From: Candidatus Latescibacterota bacterium
GTDB lineage: Bacteria > Latescibacterota > UBA2968 > UBA8231
NCBI GenBank assembly: GCA_965203355.1
Contig: OZ241889.1
Coordinates: 2,784,001 to 2,848,000, forward strand
Direction: 5' to 3'
Length of the DNA stretch: 64,000 nt
Shown here one piece after another: positions 15,236 through 32,778 of this stretch (positions are counted from its first letter, which is position 1; every line of letters begins with the position of its first letter). Under the pieces are notes generated by a model. The model was not told the DNA's origin. It ran no database searches and saw only the letters and a list, made by a program, of their open reading frames with translations. A program made the position numbers and the translations under genes.

Positions 15236-16000
15236 ATGCCCACTTCAGCGATTGGCGCACAATTGTTCACCGTGCGCAATTATACCAAAACCCCGGATGA
15301 CATTCGCCAAACCTTTGCTAAGGTGCGAGCCCTCGGCTATGAGGCCGTGCAGGCCTCGGCCTTTGGATCGATCACGCCAGCCGAACTGGCCGCGATAAGC
15401 AAGGCCGAAGGAGTGCAGATCGCGGCTACGCACACCAGTTACCAGCGCATCTGCGACGAGCCACAAGCTGTCGTCGAGGAGCATCAGATGTGGGGGTGTC
15501 GCCACGTGGCCATTGGCGGCTTGCCCGAGGAATACCGCAACCGCGAAGGGTTTGTCCGCTTTGCCGCCGAGGCTTCGGCGGCCGCGGGTCCGCTCATTGA
15601 CGCGGGTTTGACCTTTAGCTACCACAACCACAGCTTCGAACTGGAGCGTTTCGCCGGATGCACCGGACTAGACATCCTCCGCCAAGAGAGCGACCCAGCC
15701 GTTTTTTCCTTTGAAATAGACACCTATTGGATTCAACACGGCGGCGGCAACCCAGTTTCGTGGTTGGACAAGTTCCGCGACCGCATGCACATCGTCCATC
15801 TCAAAGACCTGAGCATGGCGGGCTCCAAGCAGTGCTTCGCCGAAGTAGGGGAGGGGAACTTGGAATGGGAACCTATTCTCGCCGCCTGTAAAAGAGCCCA
15901 GATTGAATGGTACTTGGTCGAACAAGATACCTGCCCGGGCGACCCGTTTGATAGCTTGGGTCTGAGCCTGCGCAACCTGCGGGCCATGGGCTTGGATTAG
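15236..16000 (+). CDS. Sugar phosphate isomerase/epimerase (IolE-like TIM barrel)
   Basis: AQLFTVR, YHNHSFE, EIDTYW, VHLKD, EVGEG, VEQD. Confidence 0.88.
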   Translation: MPTSAIGAQLFTVRNYTKTPDDIRQTFAKVRALGYEAVQASAFGSITPAELAAISKAEGVQIAATHTSYQRICDEPQAVVEEHQMWGCRHVAIGGLPEEYRNREGFVRFAAEASAAAGPLIDAGLTFSYHNHSFELERFAGCTGLDILRQESDPAVFSFEIDTYWIQHGGGNPVSWLDKFRDRMHIVHLKDLSMAGSKQCFAEVGEGNLEWEPILAACKRAQIEWYLVEQDTCPGDPFDSLGLSLRNLRAMGLD

Positions 16001-16010
16001 GAGGAAAGTC

Positions 16011-17192
16011 ATGCAGGAAATTTTCGTCCCGTGGGCCGCTTGGTACGGCAAGGACCCGTTCAAAATGGAATTTCCCGAGCACTGGGACGTGGCGGTGCAT
16101 CCCCTGCGGGGTGGGCCGGACATCGGCGACGCTGGCATTCGCCGGGCACTGCAAGAAGCCATTGGTGCCCCGCCCCTGCGCGAATTCGCCCGCGGCCGGT
16201 CTTCGGCGGCCATCCTGGTCGACGATCTCTCACGCCCCACGCCGGCTTTTCGGCTCTTGCCCTATGTCCTGGAGGAATTGGCGGCGGCCGGGATCCGGGC
16301 CGATGCCGTAAAGATCATCTGCGCGCTGGCCGCCCACCGCCCGATGACGCGCGACGATTTGGTCAAGAAGGTCGGATTGGACATCGTCGATACCATGCAG
16401 GTGCTCAACCACAATGCCTATGAGAACTTGGAATTCCTCGGTTATTCCAGCCGCGGGATTCCGATTTGGGTCAACCGCGATATGACCTCTTGCGAGGTCC
16501 GCATCGCCTTGGGCATGATCACGCCGCGTGGGGGGATGTTTGGCGGCGGAGCCAAATTGCTCATCCCCGGTGCTTGTGGGCAGCAGACCATTTTGCTCAA
16601 CCACCGCCACGTGCGCGAAAATTTTCGCGCCCATCTGTCCGAAGTGGCGAAAATGGCCGGGGTCGCGTATATCGTCAATCCGCTGCTCAACGCGGACTTG
16701 CAGATTACCGGCTTGGTCGCTGGGGACGTGGACGCGGCCTTTGCGCGGGGCTGTGAGTTGGGGCGCGAGCAGTACGCTACTCAAGTTCCCGATGCTTTCG
16801 ACATTGGCGTGTTCAACGCCTTCCCCAAGGATACGGAACTGTGCCAAGCCGGGTTGGCGATGACGCCGTTGAGCGGCACCCAGAAAAATCCCTTCAACGA
16901 AAACTCGACTACTGTCCTGTGCTCGGCTAGCCCGGAGGGGCTGGGCTGGCACTCGGTGTTGGGGCCAGGTACCGCCCTGAGAGGAAAGGCCGGGCCGCCT
17001 GCCCGGCGCACCATTCTATTTTCGCCTGGGGTCAATAAGTGGGATGCGGCTTCGCTTTTTGGCGAGGGGGTTATTTTTTGTAAAACTTGGGCGGCCGTAT
17101 TGAGCGAATTAGAAAAATACCACGGGGCCAGCGCAAAAGTTTCGGTCTTTCCGGCTGGCGTGCTACAACGGGCGGCCGACGCCAACTACTAA
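16011..17192 (+). CDS. LarA-like (DUF2088) nickel-pincer racemase/epimerase homolog
   Basis: ILVDDLSRPTP, ALAAHRPM, NHN, FGGGAKLLIPG, NH motifs. Confidence 0.8.
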   Translation: MQEIFVPWAAWYGKDPFKMEFPEHWDVAVHPLRGGPDIGDAGIRRALQEAIGAPPLREFARGRSSAAILVDDLSRPTPAFRLLPYVLEELAAAGIRADAVKIICALAAHRPMTRDDLVKKVGLDIVDTMQVLNHNAYENLEFLGYSSRGIPIWVNRDMTSCEVRIALGMITPRGGMFGGGAKLLIPGACGQQTILLNHRHVRENFRAHLSEVAKMAGVAYIVNPLLNADLQITGLVAGDVDAAFARGCELGREQYATQVPDAFDIGVFNAFPKDTELCQAGLAMTPLSGTQKNPFNENSTTVLCSASPEGLGWHSVLGPGTALRGKAGPPARRTILFSPGVNKWDAASLFGEGVIFCKTWAAVLSELEKYHGASAKVSVFPAGVLQRAADANY

Positions 17193-17203
17193 AGAGGAAA
17201 AAG

Positions 17204-17980
17204 ATGCCACCGCTCGTGCGTTTTGGTCTAGAGGGCAAAATTGTCCTTGTAACTGGGGCTGGCCGGGGGATTGGCCGGACGATTGCTTTAGAATGCGCCC
17301 AGTCCGGGGCAAACGTCGCCGTTGGCAGCCGCACCCCGGCCGAGCTGGAAACGCTGGCTGCGGAGATTGAGGCCACCGGCCGGGCGTGTTTCTACCACCA
17401 CCTCGACGTGACGGACGTACGCTCTATCGAGCGTTTTATGGCGGCGGTAGTAGCGCACTGCGGGCGGATTGACGTGCTGATCAACAACGCCGGCTACAAC
17501 AAGGTCGGCAAAATCCTCGACTACGACGAAGCGCTTTACGACTTGATCGTCGATGCCAACCTGAAGAATGTGTTTTTTTGTAGCCAGATTGCCGCGCGGC
17601 AGATGATCGCCCAAGGCGGGGGAGGCAATATCATCAATATCTCGTCTCAAGCTGGCGTAGTCGGCGCGCCCGAGCGCGGTCCTTATTCAGGTGCCAAAGC
17701 AGGCGTAAACAACCTAACGCGGACTATGGCCGCCGAATGGGCCGAATACCAGATACGGGTCAACGCGGTGGCCCCAACCGTGACCCGCTCGCCACTGGCC
17801 GAGACCGCCATGCGGGAAAGCCAAACCTTCGCCAATGCGGTGAAGACCAAGAATTTGCTGCGCGGTGCCTTGGCCGAACCAGAGGAAATGTCAGCACCGG
17901 TGATCTTTTTGGCGTCGGATGCCGCGTCGATGATCACCGGGCACACGCTGGTGGTGGATGGGGGATGGACCATCGTCTAG
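17204..17980 (+). CDS. Short-chain dehydrogenase/reductase
   Basis: TGAGRGIG, NNAG, YSGAK, VDGG; start moved to ATG 17204 after an AAGAGGA RBS. Confidence 0.93.
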   Translation: MPPLVRFGLEGKIVLVTGAGRGIGRTIALECAQSGANVAVGSRTPAELETLAAEIEATGRACFYHHLDVTDVRSIERFMAAVVAHCGRIDVLINNAGYNKVGKILDYDEALYDLIVDANLKNVFFCSQIAARQMIAQGGGGNIINISSQAGVVGAPERGPYSGAKAGVNNLTRTMAAEWAEYQIRVNAVAPTVTRSPLAETAMRESQTFANAVKTKNLLRGALAEPEEMSAPVIFLASDAASMITGHTLVVDGGWTIV

Positions 17981-18324: not shown

Positions 18325-20481
18325 TTGCTAAGACGCTTGCCGACTCACTACCTAGACCACCTTGCCGGGCGCGATCAGGCTCTGCTGGCCCCGCCCGGTA
18401 CCCAGCAGCTAACCATGCGTGCGTTTTGGGTGGGCGCGTTCCTCAGCTTTTTTCTCGCCATCGGTGCTCCATATGGCAACATGATCATCCGCGGCTCCTA
18501 TATGGCCTTGGACTTCAGTACGCCAGGGGCCATTTTTTTGTTTCTCGTCCTCATTGGGCTGCTCAATGTGCTGTTCAAGATCGCCGCTAGCCCGGCGGGC
18601 GCGGTGGTTTGGGCCTTGGTCTCGGGTGCGCTCTATGGCTTCTATTATGGCTGGGAGGCTCCGCTCGATCTCTTTGCCCCGGGTTTTTTCTTTGCCTCCT
18701 TCATCGTCGCCTCGTCCCTGCTCAATATGGTATTGGTCTTTTGTGGGCGGAGTTTGGTCCTCAACCGGGCCGAGCTGATTCTCGTGTACGTCATGCTGTT
18801 GATCGTCTCGGCTTTGTGTACGATGGGTTTGAGCGAACAAATCCTGCCGATGATCACGGCGGTGTTTTACTTTGCCTCGCCGGAAAATAAGTGGCAGGAA
18901 ATGCTCTTTCCCCATTTTTCGGCCCGAGAAGTCCTAGTCAACGACGGGAGCGATAACAAGACCTTTTACGAAGGGTTGGCACCGGGGGAAGCGATTCCCT
19001 ACGCAGCATGGGTAGAGCCTTTGTGCTGGTGGGCGGTCTTTCTCTTGGCACTATACCTGACCATGGTGTCGGTCGCGGTTATCATCCGCCGGCAGTGGAT
19101 GGAGCGCGAGCGATTGCCCTATCCGATCACGCAGGTGGGACTGGCGATGGTGCGGGGCGAGGAACGCGAGTTTAAGATCAATACCTTTTTTCGCCAGCCG
19201 ACCATGTGGGCCGGTTTTATGTTGCCGATTTTCTTTGGCAGCTTGAAGGCCCTGCATTTCTACAACCCGGCTTTTCCGGTTTTCGCGCTGACTTGGTGGA
19301 TACCCTTAGTGGGCAAGCAGACCTTGCAAATGACCGTCAGCTTCGCCATAGTCGGCTTTTCGTACTTCATCAATGCTAATATCGCGGCTGGCATCTGGTT
19401 CTTTCACCTTTTGGCCAAGTTTGAAAAGGAGTTCTTCGCGGTCGCTGGCGTGACGTCCGAGCAGAAGGTCACCTTTGGCGTGGCCGATTTTCCCCTGATG
19501 GCCTACCAAGGGGTTGGCGCCTTGCTGGCAATGGTTGTGGTTGGCTTGTGGGTGGGCCGGGAACACTTTGGCAATGTGTGCAAAAAGGCCCTCGGCTTGG
19601 CCCCAGCGGTGGAGGACGGGGATGAAATCATGTCCTATCGCTGGTCTTTTTTTGGCGCGTTGGGCGGGATTTTGGTCATGTCGTGTTGGCTGTGGATCAT
19701 GGGGACGCCGCTGTGGGTGGCGTTTGCTTTTGTCGTCTTGGCTTTGCTCATCTTCCTCGGTGTGACGCGAATCGTCGCCGAAGCCGGTCTAGCGGCCGTG
19801 CGCGCCCCGATGACGGCTCCAGACTTGGTAATTTTGGGGTTGGGGACCGACTTGGTGACGCGGGCTGGGGTGTGGAACTTGTCGTTGGCTTATATGTGGG
19901 GTGCGGACGTGCGGGTGTTCGTCCTGGCCACCTGCACCAACGCCCTCAAGCTAATTGAAGAGATGGAGCCGAGGCTGCGGCGGCTGGTGTTTTGGGCCAT
20001 TATCCTCGCGCTTTTCATTGGGGTCCTCGGTGCGTTTTGGATGATTTTCCATATGGCCTATCAGCACGGCGGTGTGAATCTCAATAGTTGGTTTTTTAAG
20101 GGCGCACCCGAAACCGCGTACAATAATGCGCTCCGCAATATAGAGCCGACGGGCATCCATTGGCCGGGGCTGGGGTTTTTGTCCGGCGGTGCCCTGGTGA
20201 TGGGGGCGATGATGTGGGCGCGGCAGCGCCTGCCGTGGTGGCCGGTGCATCCCATCGGCTTTCCCATTGGGGCCAATGGCTTGCTCAACTACGTGTGGTT
20301 TAGCGTGTTCTTGGCTTGGTTTATCAAGAAGCTGATCATGCGCTTTGGCGGGGTAGCCTTGTATCGCCGCAGTCAGATGTTCTTTTTGGGGCTGATCTGC
20401 GGGCAGGTTTCGTGTAATGGACTGTGGTTGGTCCTAGATTACTTCACCGGCAAAGTGGGGAATTCCATTTTTTGGGCATGA
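18325..20481 (+). CDS. DUF6785/DUF6784-like polytopic membrane protein
   Basis: About 18 TM segments; recalled family motifs RRQWMERERLPYPI, TRIVAEAG, PWWPVHPIGF, FFLGLICG. Confidence 0.75.
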   Translation: MLRRLPTHYLDHLAGRDQALLAPPGTQQLTMRAFWVGAFLSFFLAIGAPYGNMIIRGSYMALDFSTPGAIFLFLVLIGLLNVLFKIAASPAGAVVWALVSGALYGFYYGWEAPLDLFAPGFFFASFIVASSLLNMVLVFCGRSLVLNRAELILVYVMLLIVSALCTMGLSEQILPMITAVFYFASPENKWQEMLFPHFSAREVLVNDGSDNKTFYEGLAPGEAIPYAAWVEPLCWWAVFLLALYLTMVSVAVIIRRQWMERERLPYPITQVGLAMVRGEEREFKINTFFRQPTMWAGFMLPIFFGSLKALHFYNPAFPVFALTWWIPLVGKQTLQMTVSFAIVGFSYFINANIAAGIWFFHLLAKFEKEFFAVAGVTSEQKVTFGVADFPLMAYQGVGALLAMVVVGLWVGREHFGNVCKKALGLAPAVEDGDEIMSYRWSFFGALGGILVMSCWLWIMGTPLWVAFAFVVLALLIFLGVTRIVAEAGLAAVRAPMTAPDLVILGLGTDLVTRAGVWNLSLAYMWGADVRVFVLATCTNALKLIEEMEPRLRRLVFWAIILALFIGVLGAFWMIFHMAYQHGGVNLNSWFFKGAPETAYNNALRNIEPTGIHWPGLGFLSGGALVMGAMMWARQRLPWWPVHPIGFPIGANGLLNYVWFSVFLAWFIKKLIMRFGGVALYRRSQMFFLGLICGQVSCNGLWLVLDYFTGKVGNSIFWA

Positions 20482-23400
20482 AGCACTCGGTTTACTGCAT
20501 CCTCGGCATGCTCGCGCTGGCCGCCGATAGCGGTTGGGCGCGCGAGGACGGTTTGCGCGAAACCGTTGCTTATCTGTCGTCGCTCGGCTCTCGGGTCAGC
20601 GGCTATCCTGGGGCCGCGGTCGCCGCAGAGTACGTTGAGCAGCGCCTGCGTGCGATCGGCTTGCCCGAGCTGACCCGCGAATCCTTTGAAGTCACTGTGC
20701 CCATCGACCAAGGCGGCGAACTGCTGCTCACCGAGAGCGGGGAGCGCTACGCCCTCTACGGCCTGTGGCCCAACTTGGTCCGCACCTCGACCTTGCCCGA
20801 GTACGAGGGCGAGATGATCTACGGCGGGGACGGCGAGTGGGAGGATTTCGCGGGCTTTGAACTCGCGGGCCGGGTGGTGCTGATGGAATTCAATAGCTGG
20901 AGCCGGTGGTTGCAGGCCGCTTCGCTGGGGGCGCGTGCCATCGTCTTCATCGCTCCGGAGGAGACCACGGCCAACCAAGCTATGACCAAGTATTCCACTG
21001 CGCCGTTGGACATCCCGCGCTTTTGGCTTGAAAGAGCGGCCGGATTACAACTCAAAGAGCGGCTGCGCCAACACCCGACTGCTGTGGTGCTCAAGGGGCG
21101 GATGGACTGGCAGCGCAAGCAGGCTTGGAATATCTGGGGCCGGCTTCCCGGCACCGACCCGGCGCTGGCCGACGAGACCATTGTCATCGAAAGCTACTAC
21201 GACGGCATGTCGGTGGTTCCGGCCTTGGCGCCGGCCGCCGAAGCGACCAGCGGCATGGCTGCGTTGCTGGCGTTGGCCGAGCACCTAGTGCGGCACCCGC
21301 CGCGCCGGCCGGTCGTGCTGGTGGCCACGGGCGCGCATTTCCAAGCCCAGCAGGGGATCGTCCACTTCCTCGAGCGCCACGCCCGCCGCCATCCCTACTA
21401 TGCCGAGCGGATGGCCGAGCCGCTCAAGCCCAAGCTCTTCATCTGCATTGACCTGACGAGTCAGTCCGACGGACTGGGAATTTGGAACAATACCGCTAGC
21501 TATGATCTCAAGCGATTCTTCGTGCCTTTTGGCCGGCGTTTTACGGCCTATGCCGAGGAGGAGTCCGCGCGGTTGGGGCTACAGCAGCAACGACCGCTGG
21601 CCAATGGGATTAGCCCGATTCGCGGCATGGACTGGTCGACCTTCGTGCCGGGTGGGGTCTCGGTCAGTGGGGTGCAGGCCCTGACCGCGGGGATTGTCTC
21701 GCTGTCGTTGGCGACCGTCAACGACGCCCGCTACATCGTCGATACCCCGCTCGATACGCCCGAGCGGATGAATATCGACAATGTGTCCCGCCAAAGCCGC
21801 CTGCTCAACGCCATGCTGTCGCGGGCCGTCAACGACGAGGAGCTGTTTGCCGATCTCGAAGATTTTGGCCCGGTGCTCAAGGACAAATTGCGCTCCCTGC
21901 GGGTCAAGGTCCGTTCGTTTCCGCGCCACAGCCAAGTGCCGGACCGGCCCATCGCCGACGCCCTCGTCGTAGTGAATCCTTGGTTCAAGTCGCACAAAGG
22001 CGTGCGCTGGGCGCAGTACCACCTCACGGACGACCAAGGCATCGCCGATATCGCTGGATTGCGCACCGGGGCCTATCCGGTGGTAGCCTATCAAGTCAAG
22101 TCGGAAACTGGGGCGATCGCGTTTGCGCCCGACCTTTCGGAACGGGCGCAAAAATTCAGTGGCGCGGTCGTGAACGGGTGGATGATCGACAGCAAAATTC
22201 GCTGGAATATCAACGAAAAGACCATCGTCGTCTTTCCCGCCATTTCGCGGCCCTTCTACAGCATGATTGACCCGCGCTATCTCCGGTCGTTCAAGGGGAT
22301 CAAGATCGTCGATCACAGCGGAGTGGCCCCCCGCCAGTTCGGACTGGCGCGGGGGATTGACGAAGGCGAGGCCGTCGGTGTGGTGTTCGGAGCGCAGGAC
22401 GCCGACGAGGACGACGGCATCAAAATGATCATCGACAACCGCCTACTCCTGCTCAATAGCGAGGGCGACGAAAACGAGACGCAGGCTCGAGGGCGGGGCT
22501 ACGCGCTCAGAGAGGACTCGCTCGTCCGCACCGGGATGTTGGCGGTCGAGGACATGTGGCAGCTTAATGAGGCGCGGCTGCGCACCCTGCGCGAACACGC
22601 CATTGAAAATCAACGCCTAGCCCGGCTACACCAGCGCGGCAAGGCCCTGATCGAAAAGGCGCGGCAGGCCGAAGAGACCAAGGATTGGGCGCGCTATGTC
22701 GAGCACGTCCGGGCCGCGCTAGGCGTGACGTCTCGCGCGTACCCCGAAGTGCTACAGACGCTCAACGACGTCATCAGAGGAATGGTGTTTTTTCTCGCCT
22801 TGGTCATCCCGACGGCCTTTCTGGGGGAGCGGTTGCTGTTTGCAGCAGCCGATATTCGCCGACAGCTAGCTGGGTTTGGGGTGTTGCTGCTGTTGATTTG
22901 GCTTGCCATCTCTCAGGTTCACCCGGCCTTTGCCATCGCCCATCCACTGGTGATTTTGCTGGCCTTTGCCATCATGGCGATGGCGGCGTTTGTCTTGGCC
23001 ATGATCAGCGCCCGCTTCAACCGCTATATGAAAGCCTATCAGGCGCGGGAGGCCCACGTCCACGAGACGGATATCAGCCGCGCCAGTGCCAGTTACGCGG
23101 CCTTCATGCTCGGTATTTCCAACATGCGGCGGCGCAAGCTGCGCACCGGGCTGACCTTGCTGACCTTGGTCCTGCTCACCTTTACCGTGCTCTCCTTCAC
23201 CTCGTTCAATACCCAAGTTCGCTACATGGCCTTTGCCATGGACCACGAGGGGACCTACGAAGGTGTGCTGATCCGCGACCGCAACTGGAATGTGCTGAAT
23301 CGCCCGACGCTCGACTACGCCCACTCGCACTTCGCTGCCGAGGGCGTGGTCGTGCCGCGCAACTGGTATGTCGCCTTTGACGACGAGCAGAAGAAGTACA

Positions 23401-24881
23401 TCGAGGTCTTCGGCGATACCGCGGTGGTGCGGGCGACCGGGATGCTGGGGCTGATGCCGGAAGAAGCGCGCGTCACTGGCATCGACCAAGCCCTGGTGGG
23501 CGGGCGTTTCTTTGCGAGCGAGGACGAGGCGTCCTGCCTGATGGCCGAGGGCATGGCCGAGGCGCTGGGCATTGGTCTGGCGGAGTTGGGCACGGCAACG
23601 GTGCGGGTGTTCGGCCGGGACTTGGTGGTGCGGGGCGTGTTCGATCCCGAGCGCTTTGAGGATATTCGCGATCTCGACGACGAGCCGCTGACGCCGGCAG
23701 ATTTCCAGCTGTCGAGTGCCCAAGCCCTCGGGCCGGTAGCTCAAGACAATATGAGCATCGCCCTAGAGGAAGCCGCGCTCGACATTCGTCCCTTCATCCA
23801 CCTAGAATCCGACAACGTGCTGGTCTTGCCCTATGGAACGCTACAGGAGGCCGGGGGCACGTTGCGCTCCGTGGCGGTGCGAATGGAGGATGGAGTGCGC
23901 GGGCAGGCCATGATCGAGGATTTTCTCCTGCGTCTGGCCATTACGCTTTTTGCTGGCCTGCAAGAACCGGGCGAATCCGCCATTAAGGTGTTTTCCTATA
24001 CCTCAATTGGGTTGACCGATGTCGAGGGCTTGGGGGCCTTGGTGATACCGATGTTTATCGCCGCGCTGATTGTGCTCAATGCAATGATGGGGGCCGTCTA
24101 TGAGCGCTTCCGCGAGATCGGCATTTATTCGTCGGTGGGATTAGCGCCGCTGCACATTGCCCTGCTTTTCGTGGCCGAGGCCTGTGTCTATGCGATTATT
24201 GGCGTTACCTTGGGCTATATCCTCGGCCAGAGTTTGGGCAAAGTGCTCATCGCACTGGACCTGCTACAGGGAATAAGCCTCAATTACTCGTCGATGGCGG
24301 CGATTGTCTCGTCGCTGATCGTGATGGCCGTGGTCTTGCTTTCGACTATCTATCCGGCCAGGGTAGCGGCCCGCACGGCCGTGCCCGATACGGTCCGGCG
24401 CTGGACGCCGCCGGATCCTGACGGAGACCGCTGGGAAATGGAATTTCCCTTTATGGTCAGCGAGGGGGAAGTGCGGGGCTTGTGCGGATTCTTAGCCAGT
24501 TATTTCAGTGCCTATAGCGAGGAGTCCATCGGCGACTTCTACGCCGAGAAGGTCCAGTTGGTCGAGGAAGCCGGCGCGCGCGGGCCGGAGTACGCGGTGC
24601 AGCTTTTGCTGTGGCTGGCGCCATTCGACATGGGGGTGAGCCAGTTCATGCAGCTCGAATTTTTGCCCACCGAAGTCAAATCAGTCTATACCGTAGAAAT
24701 CTACATTGAGCGGATCAGTGGGCAGGACACCTTCTGGCAGCGGGTCAACTACCGATTTATCAATGGGTTGCGGAAAGAGTTCCTGCTCTGGCACACCCTC
24801 GCCGCCGAGTCCAAGGCCCACCATCTCGGGGTCGCTGAGCAGCTATTGGCCGCGGCAGCCGAAGCCGAGCAAGTGGAATGA
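20478..24881 (+). CDS. Fusion of a degenerate M28/PA-like ectodomain and an FtsX/MacB-type permease
   Basis: Signal peptide MKHSVYCILGMLALAA (ATGA overlap with upstream stop); SRVSGYPG, TIVIESYYDG..APAAEATSG; later RRRKLRTGLTLLTL and VYERFREIGIYSSVGLAP FtsX motifs. Confidence 0.8.
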   Translation: MKHSVYCILGMLALAADSGWAREDGLRETVAYLSSLGSRVSGYPGAAVAAEYVEQRLRAIGLPELTRESFEVTVPIDQGGELLLTESGERYALYGLWPNLVRTSTLPEYEGEMIYGGDGEWEDFAGFELAGRVVLMEFNSWSRWLQAASLGARAIVFIAPEETTANQAMTKYSTAPLDIPRFWLERAAGLQLKERLRQHPTAVVLKGRMDWQRKQAWNIWGRLPGTDPALADETIVIESYYDGMSVVPALAPAAEATSGMAALLALAEHLVRHPPRRPVVLVATGAHFQAQQGIVHFLERHARRHPYYAERMAEPLKPKLFICIDLTSQSDGLGIWNNTASYDLKRFFVPFGRRFTAYAEEESARLGLQQQRPLANGISPIRGMDWSTFVPGGVSVSGVQALTAGIVSLSLATVNDARYIVDTPLDTPERMNIDNVSRQSRLLNAMLSRAVNDEELFADLEDFGPVLKDKLRSLRVKVRSFPRHSQVPDRPIADALVVVNPWFKSHKGVRWAQYHLTDDQGIADIAGLRTGAYPVVAYQVKSETGAIAFAPDLSERAQKFSGAVVNGWMIDSKIRWNINEKTIVVFPAISRPFYSMIDPRYLRSFKGIKIVDHSGVAPRQFGLARGIDEGEAVGVVFGAQDADEDDGIKMIIDNRLLLLNSEGDENETQARGRGYALREDSLVRTGMLAVEDMWQLNEARLRTLREHAIENQRLARLHQRGKALIEKARQAEETKDWARYVEHVRAALGVTSRAYPEVLQTLNDVIRGMVFFLALVIPTAFLGERLLFAAADIRRQLAGFGVLLLLIWLAISQVHPAFAIAHPLVILLAFAIMAMAAFVLAMISARFNRYMKAYQAREAHVHETDISRASASYAAFMLGISNMRRRKLRTGLTLLTLVLLTFTVLSFTSFNTQVRYMAFAMDHEGTYEGVLIRDRNWNVLNRPTLDYAHSHFAAEGVVVPRNWYVAFDDEQKKYIEVFGDTAVVRATGMLGLMPEEARVTGIDQALVGGRFFASEDEASCLMAEGMAEALGIGLAELGTATVRVFGRDLVVRGVFDPERFEDIRDLDDEPLTPADFQLSSAQALGPVAQDNMSIALEEAALDIRPFIHLESDNVLVLPYGTLQEAGGTLRSVAVRMEDGVRGQAMIEDFLLRLAITLFAGLQEPGESAIKVFSYTSIGLTDVEGLGALVIPMFIAALIVLNAMMGAVYERFREIGIYSSVGLAPLHIALLFVAEACVYAIIGVTLGYILGQSLGKVLIALDLLQGISLNYSSMAAIVSSLIVMAVVLLSTIYPARVAARTAVPDTVRRWTPPDPDGDRWEMEFPFMVSEGEVRGLCGFLASYFSAYSEESIGDFYAEKVQLVEEAGARGPEYAVQLLLWLAPFDMGVSQFMQLEFLPTEVKSVYTVEIYIERISGQDTFWQRVNYRFINGLRKEFLLWHTLAAESKAHHLGVAEQLLAAAAEAEQVE

Positions 24882-27800
24882 TGGAAGCGTTTTTTCAGAG
24901 ACTGTCTGGGTCTTTGCAGCAGCTGTTTGGCCGCGAGCAAAAGCACAAGCGCCAGTGGGCCGAGGTCGATGAATACCGCGCTTTGCTCGAACCCCCCAAT
25001 CGCTTTGACGAAGGTTTTACGATCCGCACCATTATCGGCGTACTCTTCATCTCGCTGATTATGACCCCGGGCGAGATGTTCCTCGGGCTCTATACGGGAG
25101 GCAGCGTTGGCCCAGCAGCGCAATGGGTGACGGTGATCCTCTTTTTGGAAGTCGCCAAACGCTCGTTTACCTCGCTCAAGCGCCAAGAGATTTACCTGCT
25201 GGTGTACGTGGCCTCGGCCTTGGTCGCCCGCGAGGAAGGCGCGTTCCTCGATTTGCTTTGGCGTCAGTACTTCGTGCGTTCCGCCGAGGCTGAACAGTTT
25301 GGGATTTCGCGCATTTTGCCGTGGTGGTGGGTGCCCTCACCCGATTCGGAGGCCATTGCCGAGCGGACCTTTATCCACCGCGATTGGTTGGCGCCCATCC
25401 TGTTGTTGGTGATCGGGACGATCATGGGCCGCATCGCTTGGTTCACGTCCGGCTACATGCTCTTCCGGCTCACCTCCGACCGCGAGCAATTGCCCTTTCC
25501 GACCGCGCCGATGTCGGCGTTGAGCGCCATGGCACTGGCCGAGGATTCCGGGGCCGAGCAGGAGACGTGGAAGTGGCCGGTGTTCAGTATTGGTGCGGCC
25601 ATCGGTGCGTCATTCGGGGTCGTCTATGTAGGGATCCCGGTCATCACGGAACTTTGGGGTTCCAAAGTGACTATCTTGCCGATTCCTTTCTGGGATTTGA
25701 CCCCCTATTTCGGCAATATCATACAGGCTGCGCCGCTGGGGATCGCCACGAGTCTGGGGTCGGTGTTCGCGGGGTTGTTCATGCCCTTCTGGTCGGTGAT
25801 CGGCTCCTTTGCCGGCGTGATGCTGCACACGGCCATCAGCCCCTTTCTATATACGTGGGGCTATCTGCCGCGCTGGGAAGTCGGCATGGACACCATCCAA
25901 ACCTCCATCGTCACTGGAATCGACTTTTGGATAGCCTTTTCCATTGGCATTACCATCGCAGTTACCATCGTCAGTTTTTACCAGCTTTTTTCCACTGGCC
26001 GAGAAAAGCAGGCCGAATTGCGGGAGAAGCTCCAGATCCAAGGGGACGATCCGTCGAGGATGTGCAAGCACTCGGACTGCCTCCGCCCGGCCGAAGTGAG
26101 GGGATATTGCTTAAAACACCTCGGCCGCGGCGATTTTAACATGTGGATTTGCGCTTCGCTGTTTTGCGTAGCGGCGATTTATCCGATCGTCTTGGCCAAG
26201 ACCTTATTCCCCACTTTGGTCAGCACCGGCCTGTTGGTGCTTTTCGTGCTCATCGCCTTTGTCTATGCGCCGATCATGTCCTTTGTCAGCGCCCGGCTCG
26301 ACGGCTTGGTCGGGCGAGAGATTTCGATTCCCTATGTCAATGAGGCCATCCGCTTTATGACGGGCTTTCGCGGGGTTGAAATCTGGTTCGTGCCCTTTCC
26401 AGCCCGCAACTTCGGCGGCCACGCCGAGGGGTTTAGGATAGTAGAGTTGACCGGGATGAAGTTTACCAGCCTGCTCAAGGCCGAGCTCTTTATGTTGCCC
26501 ATCGTCTTTGGGGTGAGTCTGATGTACTGGACCTTTCTCTGGCGCTTGGCTCCCATCCCCTCGGAGAGCTACCCATACGCGCAAATCATGTGGCCGCGCC
26601 AGGCTTTTGACCAAGCACTCGTACTATCCAGTACGATGTACAACAAAATGTGGCACGCCGGCGAGGAGTTGGAAGGGGATATTGTGCCCCGCGGCCAAGT
26701 CGGGTGGAGCCCGAGCAATTTGCAGGACGGTCGTTGGTGGTACTGGCGGGTGAGTACCACCAGGGATTTAGCGGTGCCCGATCCGGTAAAGCGCACCTAT
26801 GGTCCTTGGTCGCAGACCGGCTACTTCTACACGGACTTCAGCGGCGGGGACGCACCACCGCCTCCGGAGGTCGCCCAAAGGATCGACGCTGCCGCGGGTA
26901 CGCCATCGGACCGCCCCCAGCTCCTGTGGCCGCCCAACGGCATGGCCCTTGCCACGCCCAATCCCAACTTCCGGGCGGCGGTCGAGCTAGCCCTAGGCGA
27001 TTCGGTTGACTTCTATTTTGAAGTAGATCTCCTGCCCAGCTTTGACGGCGAATTTTTGCAGCGCTCCTCGGATGTACCCTTGCTCTTTAAGGTCCTGTGG
27101 CATGACATGCGCTTTACGGGCAACCGCAAAGACGACGACGGCGACCGCAATGTCGCGGCTATAGTCGAGCGGGTGGAGCCGGAGGGGTTGGGCGATCAAC
27201 TCGGACTGGTGGAAGGCGACCGGCTCCGCGTGGTAAACGGCGTCGAACTCCGCGTCCCGCAATGGGATGCTGAGCGGATCGATCGGTATTTTACCCAAGG
27301 AGCGGACTCGGTGTTTGTCGCTTGGGCACGGGATGAGCAGACCATGCGTCGAGCGGTGGTGCGCCGACCGGGGGAAGCACTGGGGCTTGAGTTTGCAGCG
27401 GACACGTCATTCGTCGAGCGTTGGACCGAATACGACGCGGTGCGCGTCGCGGCCGTAGCCGAAGCCGGGCTAGGCCACCGTTTGGGCTTGCAAGCTGGCG
27501 ACCATCTTATGGCGATCAACGGCCAAAGCATTGAGCAGGATACGTGGCGCAGCGAGGAGGTAAGGGCCGCCTTTTCCGCGGTCGTGGAAGAGACCGCGAC
27601 CACCGTGCTAGTCGAGTGGGAACGGGATGGAGACCGGCTTCGAGGTTGGGTGGCCGATGCGTCGTCTCGCCCGCTAGGCCTGACCTATCGGGCCGGGGCC
27701 ATCGAGGGCATTGACGAAGAGCTGGTCAACAACCGCGACGACGATGGCGACGGCCTGATCGACGAGGATACGCACCATCCCCTCGGCGGTAAGAAGTGGC

Positions 27801-28105
27801 CCATCATCATGGGCGCGGCGGGCTTCGGCTTGGCCGCGTACTTTGCCATGGCCTTTTTGGGAATGCCGATCTTTATGATCTTTGGCTACGTCCAAAGCGT
27901 CAACGGCATTCCGCATTTTCTCATTCCGCAAATCATTGGTGCCCTGATCGCCAGACATTACTTCTGGAAGCGGTACGGCAAGCAGCAATGGCGGCAATAC
28001 GCCATGGTCTTGAGCGTGGGCTTCGGGGTTGGCATGTCGCTGATCGGCATGTTCAGCGCAGCCTTGTTGATGATTAAAAAAGCCGTTTCTTCCCTCGCCT
28101 ATTGA
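24878..28105 (+). CDS. OPT-like peptide transporter with large soluble insertions
   Basis: FDEGFTIRT, AAQWVTVILF, REQLPFPTAP, LAPIPSESYP; many TM segments; ATGA overlap with upstream stop. Confidence 0.7.
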   Translation: MMEAFFQRLSGSLQQLFGREQKHKRQWAEVDEYRALLEPPNRFDEGFTIRTIIGVLFISLIMTPGEMFLGLYTGGSVGPAAQWVTVILFLEVAKRSFTSLKRQEIYLLVYVASALVAREEGAFLDLLWRQYFVRSAEAEQFGISRILPWWWVPSPDSEAIAERTFIHRDWLAPILLLVIGTIMGRIAWFTSGYMLFRLTSDREQLPFPTAPMSALSAMALAEDSGAEQETWKWPVFSIGAAIGASFGVVYVGIPVITELWGSKVTILPIPFWDLTPYFGNIIQAAPLGIATSLGSVFAGLFMPFWSVIGSFAGVMLHTAISPFLYTWGYLPRWEVGMDTIQTSIVTGIDFWIAFSIGITIAVTIVSFYQLFSTGREKQAELREKLQIQGDDPSRMCKHSDCLRPAEVRGYCLKHLGRGDFNMWICASLFCVAAIYPIVLAKTLFPTLVSTGLLVLFVLIAFVYAPIMSFVSARLDGLVGREISIPYVNEAIRFMTGFRGVEIWFVPFPARNFGGHAEGFRIVELTGMKFTSLLKAELFMLPIVFGVSLMYWTFLWRLAPIPSESYPYAQIMWPRQAFDQALVLSSTMYNKMWHAGEELEGDIVPRGQVGWSPSNLQDGRWWYWRVSTTRDLAVPDPVKRTYGPWSQTGYFYTDFSGGDAPPPPEVAQRIDAAAGTPSDRPQLLWPPNGMALATPNPNFRAAVELALGDSVDFYFEVDLLPSFDGEFLQRSSDVPLLFKVLWHDMRFTGNRKDDDGDRNVAAIVERVEPEGLGDQLGLVEGDRLRVVNGVELRVPQWDAERIDRYFTQGADSVFVAWARDEQTMRRAVVRRPGEALGLEFAADTSFVERWTEYDAVRVAAVAEAGLGHRLGLQAGDHLMAINGQSIEQDTWRSEEVRAAFSAVVEETATTVLVEWERDGDRLRGWVADASSRPLGLTYRAGAIEGIDEELVNNRDDDGDGLIDEDTHHPLGGKKWPIIMGAAGFGLAAYFAMAFLGMPIFMIFGYVQSVNGIPHFLIPQIIGALIARHYFWKRYGKQQWRQYAMVLSVGFGVGMSLIGMFSAALLMIKKAVSSLAY

Positions 28106-28877: not shown

Positions 28878-29588
28878 ATGGCAGGTATATTTCAACGTTT
28901 GTTTAAAACGGGGCAGGCTGAAGCCCACGCCTTGGTGGATAAGCTCGAAGACCCGATCAAGATGAGCGAGCAAGCGATCCGCGACTTAAAAAAGGACTTG
29001 CAGGACAGTCTCAAAGCCCTCGCCGAGGTCAAGGCGATCGCCATCCGGCTCAGCCGCGAGTCCGAAGACCACCGGCGGCGCGCCGAAGACTACGAGCGCA
29101 AGACCATGCTGCTGTTGCAAAAGGCCGAATCCGGCCAGATGGACGAAGCCGAAGCCGACCGCTTGGCCCGCGAAGCCTTAACCCGCGTTGAGGAAGCCCA
29201 GAGCCGGCACGCAGAAACTTCCCAACAGGCCCAGGCCCAACAGGCGATGGCCAACAAGCTACAGAGCAATGTCAACGATCTGAAGTCGAAAATCGCTTCG
29301 TACGAAAACGATCTGATAACGCTCAAGGCGCGCACCAAAACCGCCAACGCCACCCGCAAGATCAACCAGCATTTGTCCAACATTGACTCAAAGGGGACTA
29401 CGGCCCTGCTCGAGCGGATGAAGGAAAAGGCCGAAGAGCAGGAAGCACTCGCCGAAGCCTATGGCGATATGGGGGATGCGGCGATAGCTATTGACGACGA
29501 GATCGACAAGGCCCTCGCCGACGGCAAAAAGGCCAAGGTCGATGATTCGCTGGCCCAGCTCAAGGCCAGAATGAAGGCGGCAAAATAA
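28878..29588 (+). CDS. pspA: PspA/IM30 family protein
   Basis: MAGIFQRLFK..DKLEDPIKMSEQAIRDLK, long coiled coil, C-terminal LAQLKARM. Confidence 0.93.
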   Translation: MAGIFQRLFKTGQAEAHALVDKLEDPIKMSEQAIRDLKKDLQDSLKALAEVKAIAIRLSRESEDHRRRAEDYERKTMLLLQKAESGQMDEAEADRLAREALTRVEEAQSRHAETSQQAQAQQAMANKLQSNVNDLKSKIASYENDLITLKARTKTANATRKINQHLSNIDSKGTTALLERMKEKAEEQEALAEAYGDMGDAAIAIDDEIDKALADGKKAKVDDSLAQLKARMKAAK

Positions 29589-29600
29589 GGGCTGCCGCCC

Positions 29601-31265
29601 GTGGCGCGTGGGATGAAGATCCTTAGCCGCCGGCAATTTTTCGGTGCGCTCGCCGCGGCTGGTAGCTGGGCCGCTTGGAGCGGTTGCTCTTCCGATCCCC
29701 ACCAGCGGACGGTCCCCGGGCGGATCGTCAACGAGGGACCGCCGCGTGGGCACCTGCTGCGCGATGTGCATTCTTGGGCGGATTTTGCCGCGGCAGACCA
29801 CGCCTGCGATGTCGCCATTGTCGGCGGGGGGATCTCTGGCTTGTCGGCGGCTTGGAAATTGCGTCGGTCCGGGATAGAGCGCATCCTCCTGCTCGATCTC
29901 GAAGACCAGCTAGGGGGCACTAGTCGCAGTGGCCAATGGGGCGACCGGGTGTTTCCTTGGGGTGCTCACTACATCAACATCCCGCCTGCCGAAGCCGACT
30001 GCATCCACGAAATACTGCGCGATCTAGGCGTCATCGACGGCTACGACGCGGCGAATAAGCCGATGGTTGCCGCTGGAGCAATGCTGCGCTGGCCGCACGA
30101 GCGGCTCTTTTACCGGGGTCGCTGGGTCGCCGAGCTGGACCCATTTGTCGACGCATCGGGCCGAGCGCGCGAAGCCTTGTTGCGCTTTGAAGACGAGATG
30201 CTGCGCTGGGCTTTACACCGCGGTCGGGACGGTCGCCGGGCCTTTGCCATGCCCTTGCGCTACAGCACGCGTGATGTCAAGGTGCGGCGCTTGGACCAAA
30301 TCAGCATGGCCCAGTACCTGCGCGAAGAAGGCTGGCACGACGACCGGCTTGGCTGGCTGGTCGACTATGCCTGTCGCGACGACTACGGCAGCACGGCAGC
30401 CCAAGTCTCGGCGTGGGCCGGGATTCACTACTATGCTTGTCGGTTCTACGACTACCGATTGCACGAAGCCTATCCAGCACACACGCTGACGTGGCCCGAG
30501 GGCAATGGGCACCTCGTTGCGAAACTCGCTAATAGGTTGGGGAAGAACGAGATAAAGCGACAGGCTATGGTGGCGCGTCTAGCCGAGGAGCGATCGCAGG
30601 TGCGGTTGGGATACATCGACTTGGCCACCGGAGAAAAGCGGCAATTGACCGCTCGGGCCGTGGTGTACGCCGGCAAGCTCCACACGGCTCCCTATGCGAT
30701 CGCGGGCCTGCCGGATGCCCAGGCTCAGGCTATGACAGCTATCGAATACAGCCCGTGGTTGGTGGCGGCGCTTTTTCTCAAAGCACCGCTCGCGGCCTCG
30801 CACACGACGTGGGACAACGTCTTGTACGACAGTCCGTCACTGGGATACGTGGTCGCGGACCACCAGCAGGGTACGGGAGGCCGCGTGTTGCTGTACTATT
30901 GGCCTTTTGTCGATCAACTCGCGGAAGCCCGGGAGGCTTTGCTCGCGCAAGACCATTCATTCTGGGCCGAACAGATCATGGCCGATTTGCGCCGAGTCCA
31001 CCCAGAACTCGACGACCTCGTCGAGCGCATTGACCTGTATCGCTGGGGGCACGGAATGATGCGGCCCAGTCCGGGGTCGCTATGGGGGCCGATGGCTGCT
31101 TGGCGGCAGCAGCCAATGGAGCGGATATTTTTTGCTTCGTGCGATGCGACGGGCCTGCCCTTATGCGAGGAAGCGATCTTTGCCGGTACGCTGGCGGCAG
31201 AGCAAGCCATGGACTGCCTCGGCGTGGCGTATTCTTCCTCGCTGGGGGGGCTTGCGGATGCCTAG
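29601..31265 (+). CDS. FAD-dependent amine oxidase-like protein with Tat signal
   Basis: SRRQFF Tat motif then WSGC; IVGGGISGLSAAW, GGTSRSG, WGAHY, RWGHGM; true start may be ATG 29613. Confidence 0.85.
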   Translation: MARGMKILSRRQFFGALAAAGSWAAWSGCSSDPHQRTVPGRIVNEGPPRGHLLRDVHSWADFAAADHACDVAIVGGGISGLSAAWKLRRSGIERILLLDLEDQLGGTSRSGQWGDRVFPWGAHYINIPPAEADCIHEILRDLGVIDGYDAANKPMVAAGAMLRWPHERLFYRGRWVAELDPFVDASGRAREALLRFEDEMLRWALHRGRDGRRAFAMPLRYSTRDVKVRRLDQISMAQYLREEGWHDDRLGWLVDYACRDDYGSTAAQVSAWAGIHYYACRFYDYRLHEAYPAHTLTWPEGNGHLVAKLANRLGKNEIKRQAMVARLAEERSQVRLGYIDLATGEKRQLTARAVVYAGKLHTAPYAIAGLPDAQAQAMTAIEYSPWLVAALFLKAPLAASHTTWDNVLYDSPSLGYVVADHQQGTGGRVLLYYWPFVDQLAEAREALLAQDHSFWAEQIMADLRRVHPELDDLVERIDLYRWGHGMMRPSPGSLWGPMAAWRQQPMERIFFASCDATGLPLCEEAIFAGTLAAEQAMDCLGVAYSSSLGGLADA

Positions 31266-32778
31266 GCTGGGTGCGCTGTTTTTGCTGGTGGCCATTTTCT
31301 CGGCCGCGGTCTGCGCCATCGTCTATCAGCTCCTCATCGGCAGTGTTTCGTCCTACTTCCTCGGCAATAGCGTTGAGCAGTTTTCCCTGACGATTGGCTT
31401 TTTCCTCGCGGCGATGGGGCTTGGCTCTTGGCTTTCGCGCTTTGTCGCCGACGACTTGCTGTTGACGCGGCTAGCTCAACTGGAGATTTGGCTGGGGCTT
31501 TTGGGTGGAATTTCCGTTGTCGTACTCTATGTGCTCTACGGATACACCGATCACTTTAGGGTTGGTATGCTGGCGTTGAGCACGGCGATCGGCGCATTGA
31601 TCGGCCTAGAAGTGCCCCTAATTACCCGGCTTTTGCGCGGGCACGGTACGCTGCGGGCGGCCTTATCTACTGTTTTGTCCCTCGATTATTTAGGAGCCTT
31701 ATTGGCCTCGTTGCTCTTCCCGTACATCCTATTGCCTTTCCTCGGCAGTCTGCATACGGCGTTGGTCGCCGGTTTGGTCAATGCTGGTCTCGGGCTCGGC
31801 GTGGTGTTCGCGTTTAAGGGGACGTTGCTATCCTCGGGTGCCTTCCGCTCGCTAGGCGTGCAAGCGCTGATGGTTATTGCGGGGCTAGGAGTACTGGCTT
31901 GGCAAGGGGAAAGGCTGCGGGCGCGGTGGGAAAGCGATCTGTACGAAGACCGCATCGTCCACAGCGAGCAATCGACCTACCAGCAAATCGTCCTGACCCA
32001 GCGCGACGAACACCTGCGGCTCTATCTCAACGGGCACTTGCAATTCGCCTCCATTGACGAGTACCGCTACCACGAAGCCCTAGTCCATCCGGCGATGGCG
32101 CTAGTACCATCCCGTGAAAGGGTCCTCATCATCGGGGGCGGCGACGGTCTGACGGCGCGAGAAGTGCTCAAGTACGCGGAGGTCGAGCACGTTGATTTAG
32201 TCGATCTCGACCCGGCGGTAACGCGGTTGGCCCAGCGCAATATCCACCTGACTCGGATCAATGACAATGCCTTGAACCGCCGCCAAGTCCACGTGGTCAA
32301 CGAAGATGGCTTTGTCTTTTTGCAGCGCGCGCATGTGCCGTATGATGCGATACTAATCGACTTGCCCGATCCCCGCGAAGAGAGCTTGGCCAAGCTCTAT
32401 TCGGTCGAAGCCTATAGGCTGTGCCGCAAGGTGCTCAGCCCGCAAGGTGTCTTGGCAACCCAGGCTTCCAGCCCGTACCACGTCCGCGAGGCGTATTGGA
32501 GCATTGCCGCGGCCTTGGAGGAAACGGGCTTTGCCGTCCACTCCTATCACTTGCACGTACCCTCTTTTGGCCAGTGGGGATTCCACTTGGCGGGACCCGC
32601 CGGATTGGATCCGACCGCGGTCGATTTTGCCGTTCCCACGCGCTATCTCGACCGCCAAATCTGGAGTACCCTCGCGGTATTCGACAGCGACATGAGCCGC
32701 CTGCCCGTGCAGGCGAACCGACTTGATAAGCCGGTGCTAGCGCGTTATTATCGACAAGGTTGGGGGCCTCAGTTTTGA
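31258..32778 (+). CDS. speE: Membrane-anchored polyamine aminopropyltransferase
   Basis: About 7 N-terminal TM segments, LYLNGHLQF..DEYRYHEALVHP, IIGGGDG, IDLPDP, VPSFGQWG; start set at ATG 31258. Confidence 0.88.
   Translation: MPRLGALFLLVAIFSAAVCAIVYQLLIGSVSSYFLGNSVEQFSLTIGFFLAAMGLGSWLSRFVADDLLLTRLAQLEIWLGLLGGISVVVLYVLYGYTDHFRVGMLALSTAIGALIGLEVPLITRLLRGHGTLRAALSTVLSLDYLGALLASLLFPYILLPFLGSLHTALVAGLVNAGLGLGVVFAFKGTLLSSGAFRSLGVQALMVIAGLGVLAWQGERLRARWESDLYEDRIVHSEQSTYQQIVLTQRDEHLRLYLNGHLQFASIDEYRYHEALVHPAMALVPSRERVLIIGGGDGLTAREVLKYAEVEHVDLVDLDPAVTRLAQRNIHLTRINDNALNRRQVHVVNEDGFVFLQRAHVPYDAILIDLPDPREESLAKLYSVEAYRLCRKVLSPQGVLATQASSPYHVREAYWSIAAALEETGFAVHSYHLHVPSFGQWGFHLAGPAGLDPTAVDFAVPTRYLDRQIWSTLAVFDSDMSRLPVQANRLDKPVLARYYRQGWGPQF

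Follow-up and report, generated by a model that had tools for sequence, protein, structure and literature searches.

A giant FtsX-family protein of Latescibacterota carries an M28 aminopeptidase-fold head with a rewritten and conserved metal site

What does a peptidase-fold domain do on a membrane protein when its metal site has been rewritten? The question is raised by a 64,000-nucleotide stretch of DNA (the window) from Candidatus Latescibacterota bacterium (GenBank assembly GCA_965203355.1, contig OZ241889.1, positions 2,784,001 to 2,848,000 of the forward strand), in which one gene encodes a giant FtsX-family protein of 1,467 amino acids with a large outer domain, referred to here as the head. 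An initial annotation of the window proposed that the head is an M28-like domain that has lost its zinc ligands, that it is fused to a permease, and that it may be related to nicalin and nicastrin of eukaryotic membrane complexes. Our analysis indicates that the head is probably the binding module of an unstudied envelope machine of the ATP-binding cassette (ABC) type, of bacterial enzyme descent and not a close relative of nicastrin or nicalin.

Replacement of the metal site

The peptide quoted in the initial annotation for 21177-21356 on the forward strand, TIVIESYYDGMSVVPALAPAAEATSGMAALLALAEHLVRHPPRRPVVLVATGAHFQAQQG, is the exact translation of that segment, and its three motif readings, SYYD, AAEATSG, and AHFQ, held when the protein was aligned to solved, active M28 enzymes. 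SYYD aligned with SHHD (2ek8), AHYD (YwaD), and GHLD (AAP); AAEATSG aligned with ANDDASG, ANDNGSG, and ADDDASG; and AHFQ aligned with AEEL/AEEV and with AHEV of 2anp, which by its title in the Protein Data Bank (PDB) is a functional Glu151-to-His mutant of AAP. Site equivalences, in AAP numbering, were taken from the alignments to solved enzymes and to five canonical M28 database proteins (MAFFT). The zinc-ligand and general-base roles listed below are those that we take these M28 positions to have, with only residue 151 anchored, by the 2anp title. Residue counts refer to a set of 318 proteins consisting of the family matches, the query, and 5 canonical outgroup enzymes (313 family proteins).

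21177..21356 (+), segment under study, residues 234-293, with three of the rewritten motifs
21195..21203 (+), Tyr240-Tyr241-Asp242 in place of His-x-Asp; Tyr240 stands at AAP His97 (ligand) and Asp242 at AAP Asp99 (the Asp of HxD); Y240 in 280/318 proteins, D242 in 316/318
21240..21242 (+), Glu255 in place of the bridging ligand AAP Asp117; E in 268/318, D in 32/318
21336..21341 (+), His287-Phe288 in place of Glu-Glu, that is, AAP Glu151 (general base) and Glu152 (ligand); H287 in 303/318; position 288 is F in 227, H in 29, Y in 20, C in 12, and G in 10
21450..21452 (+), Asp325, retained at the fourth ligand position, AAP Asp179; D in 285 of 291 proteins that have a residue at this position
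21741..21743 (+), Asp422 in place of the fifth ligand, AAP His256 of the HTPxD motif; D in 223 and, in some relatives, N (41) of 318

Where active M28 enzymes have the ligand set His, Asp, Glu, Asp, and His, the head has Tyr240, Glu255, Phe288, Asp325, and Asp422, and their general-base Glu is His287 here, aligned with residue 151 of 2anp. As aligned, non-equivalent residues stand at three of the five ligand positions, another has a conservative change, and one retains its ligand; the general base is a His. The 2ek8, YwaD, and MAFFT alignments agreed in placing Glu255 at the ligand Asp; one HMMER alignment, to AAP, shifted a one-residue gap in ADDD, so that Glu255 faced the Asp preceding the ligand Asp. 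The equivalences of Asp325 and Asp422, which the initial annotation had not listed, came from MAFFT and from HMMER sub-alignments that were individually not significant. Fold (see below) and alignments together support an M28 fold that lacks the canonical binuclear zinc ligand set. The head is presumably also non-catalytic, although its conserved Tyr, Glu, His, Asp, and Asp could still hold a metal.

Conservation of the replaced site was high. Among the query and its 120 best homologues (n = 121), Tyr240 was present in 119, Asp242 in 121, Glu255 in 120, His287 in 121, and Phe288 in 119. The commonest pattern across the 318 proteins was Y-D-E-H-F-D-D (133/318), and the canonical H-D-D-E-E pattern was found in 5/318, all of them outgroup enzymes. 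Y-D-E-H-F-D-D was also the commonest pattern at more distant metagenome loci (36/69), where the canonical pattern was found in 0/69. The mean top-residue frequency of the seven site positions was 0.89, compared to 0.55 domain-wide (313 family proteins), and 0.89 was reached by 4 of 20,000 random seven-position sets; the seven columns ranked 4, 18, 23, 51, 68, 88, and 111 of 448. Site residues were kept from Latescibacterota to members approximately 35% identical, and a family-specific loop, GISPIRGMDW, was nearly invariant. Because the residues are conserved across homologues and relative to random position sets, the replacements are not drift; the site was rewritten and then constrained.

The family is large. 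A word-indexed search returned 472 proteins at E<=1e-3; among the 120 matches listed, nearly all were 1,430-1,516 amino acids in length, and seven were approximately 2,105-2,143 amino acids and also carried DUF6784/DUF6785. An exhaustive profile search (50% clusters) returned 1,041 representatives at E<=1e-30, and a looser count of 5,561 at E<=1e-3 will take in ordinary M28 enzymes. Named family records were metagenome-assembled genomes of Latescibacterota, "Gemmatimonadota", and Handelsmanbacteria. In three proteins of 2,769-3,053 amino acids (P0242, P0277, and P0322), the M28-like domain lay only beyond residue ~1,100, with other sequence fused ahead of it.

Fold and descent of the ectodomain

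The Pfam signal for M28 was real but weak. Peptidase_M28 (PF04389) matched a 491-residue cut of the window protein marginally (E 7.7e-5, 22.9 bits, cut-off 21.3), a 450-residue ectodomain cut had no Pfam match at E<=0.01, and a Pfam scan of the whole protein returned FtsX and a sub-threshold protease-associated (PA) domain, with no Peptidase_M28. Among 35 homologues, 29 matched Peptidase_M28 (best 9.7e-10) and 9 matched PA.

Residues 1-491 were modeled with AlphaFold2 from 48 sequences (pLDDT 88.1, pTM 0.88), and in this model the ectodomain has the M28 alpha/beta fold. The best Foldseek match was 2ek8 (6.7e-24), followed by PaAP, BSAP, and 3iib (E ~1e-24 to 1e-21 for the four), and transferrin receptor 1 (TfR1) and GCPII ranked below these bacterial PA-M28 enzymes. 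A Foldseek-independent search of 48,161 representative chains gave the same order, with scores of ~23 for glutaminyl cyclases, 18-21 for M20/M42 enzymes, and 18.2 (rank 50) for the human glycosylphosphatidylinositol (GPI)-transamidase chain. Structural alignments spanned ~380 residues for PA-containing enzymes, compared to ~258 for the PA-less AAP. A profile of the whole domain, searched against the PDB, matched 2ek8 at 4.9e-13, YwaD at 3.1e-10, AAP-E151H at 8.9e-4, TfR1 at 0.017, nicalin at 0.018, and wild-type AAP at 0.026. We consider it moderately probable, jointly with the rest of the explanation developed below, that residues 23-472 are a PA-bearing M28 aminopeptidase fold inherited from bacterial PA-M28 aminopeptidases.

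The suggested kinship with nicalin and nicastrin was not borne out over the whole domain. Nicalin, at 0.018, was level with TfR1 and far behind 2ek8, and nicastrin had no match to the whole-domain profile at E<=10. The top structural matches were bacterial PA-M28 enzymes, and neither nicalin nor nicastrin was among the matches listed, that is, the 50 best of Foldseek or of two further PDB structure searches. The initial annotation had also pointed to a motif likeness to both proteins, which stood, marginally, for nicalin and was not significant for nicastrin. When a profile of residues 226-312 was used, AAP-E151H matched at 7e-4, nicalin was second (1.6e-3 and 4.1e-3, over 40 residues), YwaD followed at 0.014, and nicastrin (4uis_A) was not significant at 0.74. 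The nicalin stretch TIVIVAHYDAFGVAPWLS.GADSNGSG..LLELAR aligned to the family consensus with the same loop length and no loop gap. Nicalin does not have this family's substitutions, because it keeps His and Asp at both ligand positions of the shared stretch. In a single-sequence PDB search, the 86-residue window segment gave chance-level matches only. The likeness to nicalin is thus real but marginal, and confined to the most conserved M28 stretch.

It is highly improbable that the head is a prokaryotic relative of nicalin and nicastrin sharing a specific non-catalytic ancestor with them. Such an ancestor would account for the segment profile, in which nicalin did better than YwaD or 2ek8 with the same xYD-to-GA[DE] loop length, and for the fact that both sides are membrane-tethered M28 folds and not ordinary peptidases. 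It is opposed by the whole-domain values for nicalin, nicastrin, and 2ek8, by the poor standing of nicastrin even in the segment profile, by the His and Asp of nicalin where the family has Tyr and Glu, by a PA insert and overall architecture that are those of bacterial PA-M28 enzymes, and by the failure of the 86-residue segment alone to find anything in the PDB. Nicalin and nicastrin consist of an ectodomain followed by a single C-terminal transmembrane (TM) helix and are subunits of eukaryotic membrane complexes; here, seven predicted TM helices, MacB_PCD, and FtsX all lie C-terminal to the ectodomain. As part of the explanation that we favor with moderate confidence, the likeness of the head to nicalin and nicastrin would go no further than its being one more non-canonical M28 fold, of independent origin, on a membrane complex. 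The attractive link to gamma-secretase and the BOS complex is unsupported; the likeness either arose by convergence or does not extend beyond the most conserved M28 motif stretch.

The giant protein, its operon, and its motor

The segment lies in an open reading frame (ORF) at 20424-24881 (+), translation of which probably starts at the ATG at 20478 (MKHSVYCILGMLALAADSGWA...), as it does in the closest homologues. The gene has ATGA overlaps at both ends, its own ATG with the upstream stop and its own stop with the downstream ATG, and 18325-28105 is read as a three-gene operon because of these start/stop overlaps at both junctions. The features of the operon, other than the site residues given above, are as follows.

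18325..20481 (+), upstream partner, a DUF6785+DUF6784 membrane protein of the OPT/Yellow-Stripe fold
20478..24881 (+), gene for the 1,467-residue giant FtsX-family protein, start as in close homologues
20478..20540 (+), N-terminal hydrophobic signal or anchor segment, residues 1-21, from sequence; AlphaFold2 helix 2-15, low pLDDT 15-21
20544..21893 (+), PA-bearing M28-fold ectodomain, residues 23-472
20841..21053 (+), PA insert; PF02225 E 2.9e-4, 21.4 bits, under the 23.9 cut-off
21894..22772 (+), middle periplasmic region and helical stalk, residues 473-765, conserved across the family
22773..23012 (+), three extra TM helices, residues ~766-845, from a hydropathy scan, bringing the chain to the cytoplasm before the MacB-type module
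23145..23726 (+), MacB-like periplasmic core after TM1; PF12704 E 5.7e-7, 30.5 bits, cut-off 27
24039..24377 (+), FtsX C-terminal permease domain (PF02687), TM2-4, with the coupling-helix motif ERFREIG
24378..24878 (+), C-terminal domain, residues 1301-1467 (167 residues), presumed cytoplasmic, conserved, without a family match
24878..28105 (+), downstream partner, a 1,075-residue polytopic membrane protein with two PDZ domains in an outer loop; PDZ_6 5.8e-12

By hydropathy, the order is a signal segment, an ectodomain of ~750 residues, three TM helices, a MacB-type module (TM1, periplasmic core, TM2-4), and the 167-residue C-terminal domain. The N-terminal segment and this topology (sequence, hydropathy, and AlphaFold2 helix) support the earlier reading of the domain as an ectodomain, which would lie outside the membrane behind a signal peptide. 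The proposed fusion to a permease is likewise present, and the permease is of the FtsX/MacB type by Pfam FtsX, MacB_PCD, and hydropathy. PF02687 matched at E 6.7e-12 (45.9 bits, cut-off 25.5) in the whole protein and at E 2e-12 in a separate piece. With an FtsX C-terminal domain and a MacB-type core between TM1 and TM2, the module is a type VII ABC permease domain. Profile matches were to MacB (4.3e-9), LolC, YtrF, and LolF chains. In an NCBIfam scan, matches to MacB, LolC, ADOP, and FtsX were all far sub-threshold, and equivalog cut-offs were not reached (MacB 31.7 of 966, LolC 25.3 of 473, ADOP 19.1 of 622). No Pfam family matched the middle piece, 21951-23000, at E<=10; approximately 290 conserved residues without a family match thus lie between the head and the membrane.

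No ABC ATPase was found inside the 64-kb window. Among 80 more distant metagenome loci, 33 had an ATPase-like ORF on the same strand; a stricter count gave 30/74 loci, with a directly adjacent small FtsX-only ORF in 24 of the 30, and the count for loci with long flanks was 11/18. Pfam confirmed ABC_tran in 5/5 and FtsX in 4/4 of the candidates checked. One such locus (L092) has a five-gene operon of small FtsX, ATPase, DUF6785, giant, and third protein. Three close complete Latescibacterota genomes, whose giant orthologue is ~90% identical, each had one small-FtsX orthologue (E ~1e-37), and in 3/3 an ATPase 68% identical to that of L092 lay beside it, with the pair distant from the giant genes. 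The FtsX query matched 5-6 open frames of 1,477-2,143 amino acids in these genomes, so that each genome (G001-G003 of L002, L009, and L017; L153-L155) has one small-FtsX and ABC-ATPase pair for 5-6 giant frames. This suggests that one motor is common to several giant paralogues. The simplest reading is a heterodimeric type VII ABC complex, similar to LolCDE, with its motor encoded in trans in this clade; for the source genome, this is what we infer. No MacA/TolC or LolA/B-type partners were found among the neighbor ORFs scanned with Pfam.

Two flanks in this part of the survey had other contents. L047, from the sole sub-lineage of the clade that has retained an ABC ATPase close to the giant gene, has a DDE transposase and a group II intron reverse transcriptase/maturase upstream (L047:106-2869). 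At L058:3044-7235, the upstream flank of a fused giant gene has a Hachiman-like defense pair, made up of a HamA-domain protein and, after it, a DEAD/Helicase_C/HIRAN protein.

OPT-fold partners and neighboring genes

The partner genes have the oligopeptide transporter (OPT)/Yellow Stripe-Like (YSL) transporter fold. A DUF6785/6784 homologue adjoined the giant gene on the same strand in 68/72 genome loci, the exceptions being L030, L051, and two short loci, L060 and L070, and in 8/72 loci it was fused behind the giant in a single ORF of 2,088-2,135 amino acids. L072, with an ORF of 2,122 amino acids, was considered as a further fusion and rejected, as its DUF6785 match is in another frame and the long ORF is an upstream extension. 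The downstream-type protein was present in 42/72 genome loci and 65/80 metagenome loci, and the PDZ pair was restricted to its long forms (5/18 downstream-family members). When sequences were searched against the PDB, the DUF6785 protein had no match and the downstream protein matched through its PDZ domains only. Pfam OPT matched 0/18 whole downstream-family proteins, and BLASTP of the upstream against the downstream window protein gave no match.

The downstream protein also has an invariant Cys/His cluster (C396, H398, C401, C411, and H414) in the loop after the first TM block and an invariant Asp-rich run, D946...D964 (DDDGDG-like), just before the last TM block.

Elsewhere in the window, 28878-32778, directly downstream of the operon, holds a PspA/IM30 gene, a flavin amine oxidase, and a spermidine-synthase-domain protein, and could be an envelope-stress and polyamine neighborhood. 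An AAA_5 ATPase and a McrBC-component protein at 40088-42681 form a McrBC-type restriction system. The metabolic genes upstream, at 15236-17980 (a xylose-isomerase-like TIM barrel, a LarA-like protein of the nickel-pincer racemase family, and an SDR), are apparently unrelated to the operon.

Role of the head

The explanation that we judge the best, and hold to be somewhat more probable than all others together, is that a rewritten, fixed-site M28 head sits on the large subunit of a type VII ("mechanotransmission") ABC system with OPT-fold partners and has a non-hydrolytic binding role. The zinc site would have been rewritten to Tyr240 / Asp242 / Glu255 / His287-Phe288 / Asp325 / Asp422 and then held fixed across a very large family. 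In a MacB/LolCDE-type ABC complex, the domain would form the periplasmic head of the large subunit, which is encoded almost always beside, and sometimes fused to, OPT/Yellow-Stripe-fold membrane proteins. The small FtsX and the ATPase would be supplied from the same operon in sister lineages and from a single distant chromosomal pair in the closest complete genomes. The head would no longer cut peptides and would act as a ligand- or partner-binding module; the best guess for its ligand is a peptide or a protein N-terminus. Peptides are suggested by the descent from aminopeptidases, by the PDZ domains, and by partners of the OPT fold. A gated, non-hydrolytic binding module is suggested because of the analogy with FtsEX-EnvC. 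PMC11627006 describes the LytM domain of EnvC as having W320, V324, and Y401 instead of zinc ligands, as having no hydrolase activity, and as an FtsEX-driven, regulated binding groove. In a similar manner, ATP-driven movements of the FtsX module may control the access or position of the head, as FtsEX controls the zinc-less LytM domain, and the head may thereby serve the OPT-fold partners in peptide handling at the envelope.

Several observations weigh against this explanation. We infer both ligand binding and the loss of catalysis, and the putative pocket residues were placed by sequence alignment. Glu255, His287, Asp325, and Asp422, with His288 where it occurs (29/318), could form a metal site, and the Glu151-to-His mutant of AAP is titled functional. 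The peptide theme derives from the fold family of the partners, and the sole solved OPT-fold match, HvYS1, carries an iron chelate and not a peptide. The OPT match of the downstream protein was marginal and covered its last 134 residues only (E 4.5e-6, 26.1 bits, cut-off 25.8), and hhalign gave the DUF6785 and downstream-protein families a probability of 3.4%, with no detectable homology. As for the motor, an ATPase-like ORF lay within 9 kb in 2/72 loci of this clade, one of them Pfam-confirmed, and the in-trans pair was shown only in relatives with a ~90% identical orthologue.

Some of these points would fit a head that is still an enzyme, with a new mono-metal or non-zinc center made up of Glu255, His287, Asp325, Asp422, and perhaps Tyr240. 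It would trim peptides or another amide or ester substrate, and the OPT-fold partners would take up the products. We regard this as unlikely, although it is the main rival. His287 occupies the general-base position in 303/318 proteins among three conserved carboxylates, the site is conserved far above the domain average, His-His occurs at 287-288 in 29/318 proteins, and the functionally titled AAP mutant is the best AAP-type profile match. However, neither canonical His ligand remains (Tyr240; Asp or Asn at 422), a hydrophobic Phe takes the place of the Glu ligand in 227/318 proteins, and no known M28 enzyme with this ligand set was found among the PDB profile and structure matches. Moreover, a conserved, degenerate site is equally expected of a binding groove, as in EnvC. 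The same conservation bears on the opposite possibility, an inert relic in which a dead peptidase has no site-specific function and only provides the FtsX subunit with a bulky spacer or a scaffold for folding. The canonical ligand set is lost, and many pseudo-enzymes do have structural roles, but the substituted positions are among the best-conserved columns down to members ~35% identical, and the GISPIRGMDW loop is nearly invariant; we consider a relic decidedly improbable.

A bolder reading can also be put forward, although we think it rather unlikely as a whole. The conserved Tyr/Asp/Glu/His/Phe/Asp/Asp set could be a new functional center on the M28 scaffold, either a metal-free receptor for free peptide N-termini or a new mono-metal catalytic site, within a so far undescribed hybrid machine in which an ATP-driven MacB/Lol-type motor mechanically feeds or gates proton-coupled OPT-fold transporters, with one motor per genome for several giants. 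If true, a primary transporter would here be coupled directly to a secondary one.

Novelty and significance

The M28 pseudo-peptidase and the type VII ABC system are each of a kind already known; the architecture was not found in the literature searched. Searches on FtsX with M28 and OPT or Latescibacter returned nothing relevant among the papers listed, no paper naming DUF6785 or DUF6784 was found, a search on prokaryotic nicalin/aminopeptidase found nothing, and one on pseudopeptidase M28/nicalin/nicastrin found proteomics lists only. Pseudo-peptidases on membrane complexes, such as nicastrin, nicalin, TfR1, and EnvC, are important, and the use of such heads is still debated. This family is a large bacterial example: a different, strictly conserved residue set has taken the place of the zinc site, and the head is connected in cis with a mechanotransmitting ABC module and with OPT-fold transporters. 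Should it turn out to be an ATP-controlled binding module, the FtsEX-EnvC principle would extend beyond cell-wall hydrolases, and DUF6785/DUF6784 would gain a first function. The family is carried by uncultured Latescibacterota and by allied lineages from sediment and soil, and any peptide-scavenging role would bear on how these abundant organisms feed.

Comparison with known systems

The bacterial PA-M28 aminopeptidases (Aneurinibacillus AM-1, 2ek8; Bacillus subtilis BSAP/YwaD, 6hc6; Pseudomonas PaAP, 8acg; Shewanella, 3iib) have the same two-part fold, with PA inserted in the M28 core, and share with this domain the HxD-type Asp, the fourth-ligand Asp, and the TPxD motif. These enzymes are soluble, secreted, and di-zinc, with His/Asp/Glu-Glu/Asp/His at the site, whereas this domain has Tyr/Glu/His-Phe/Asp/Asp, the conserved extra loop GISPIRGMDW, and a covalent connection to ~1,000 more residues that include the FtsX/MacB module.

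Nicalin (7tm3, 6w6l), nicastrin (4uis), transferrin receptor 1, and the GPI-transamidase chain 7w72_A are likewise membrane-tethered M28 folds that are not ordinary peptidases, and this domain showed no preferential similarity to such eukaryotic non-catalytic folds. It also differs from them in its partners, FtsX and OPT-fold proteins. The partners of the eukaryotic folds are gamma-secretase, NOMO/TMEM147, and transferrin. GPAA1 is the M28-like subunit of GPI transamidase.

Known OPT proteins are stand-alone, proton-coupled importers. The OPT-fold partners here are instead coupled or fused to an ABC-type permease, and the DUF6785 protein is ~10% identical to barley HvYS1 (7wst) and has no Pfam OPT match. 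With MacB and LolCDE, the giant protein shares the FtsX domain, the MacB-type periplasmic core between TM1 and TM2, and the coupling-helix motif, and sister lineages have a second, small FtsX subunit and one ATPase gene, as in heterodimeric LolC/LolE-LolD. In contrast to those systems, it is extended by an N-terminal ectodomain of 750 residues, three additional TM helices, and a C-terminal domain of 167 residues, and in this clade the ATPase is nearby in only 2/72 loci.

The best working analogy is FtsEX-EnvC as presented in PMC11627006, in which an FtsX permease and a cytoplasmic ABC ATPase are coupled to a periplasmic metallopeptidase-fold domain whose zinc ligands are replaced, partly by aromatic residues, a likeness to this head. 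EnvC is a separate, coiled-coil-bound protein of the M23/LytM fold and an amidase activator, whereas here an M28 fold with a PA insert is fused in cis; and unlike FtsEX-EnvC, this operon includes no peptidoglycan hydrolase and has OPT-fold membrane proteins as its conserved partners.

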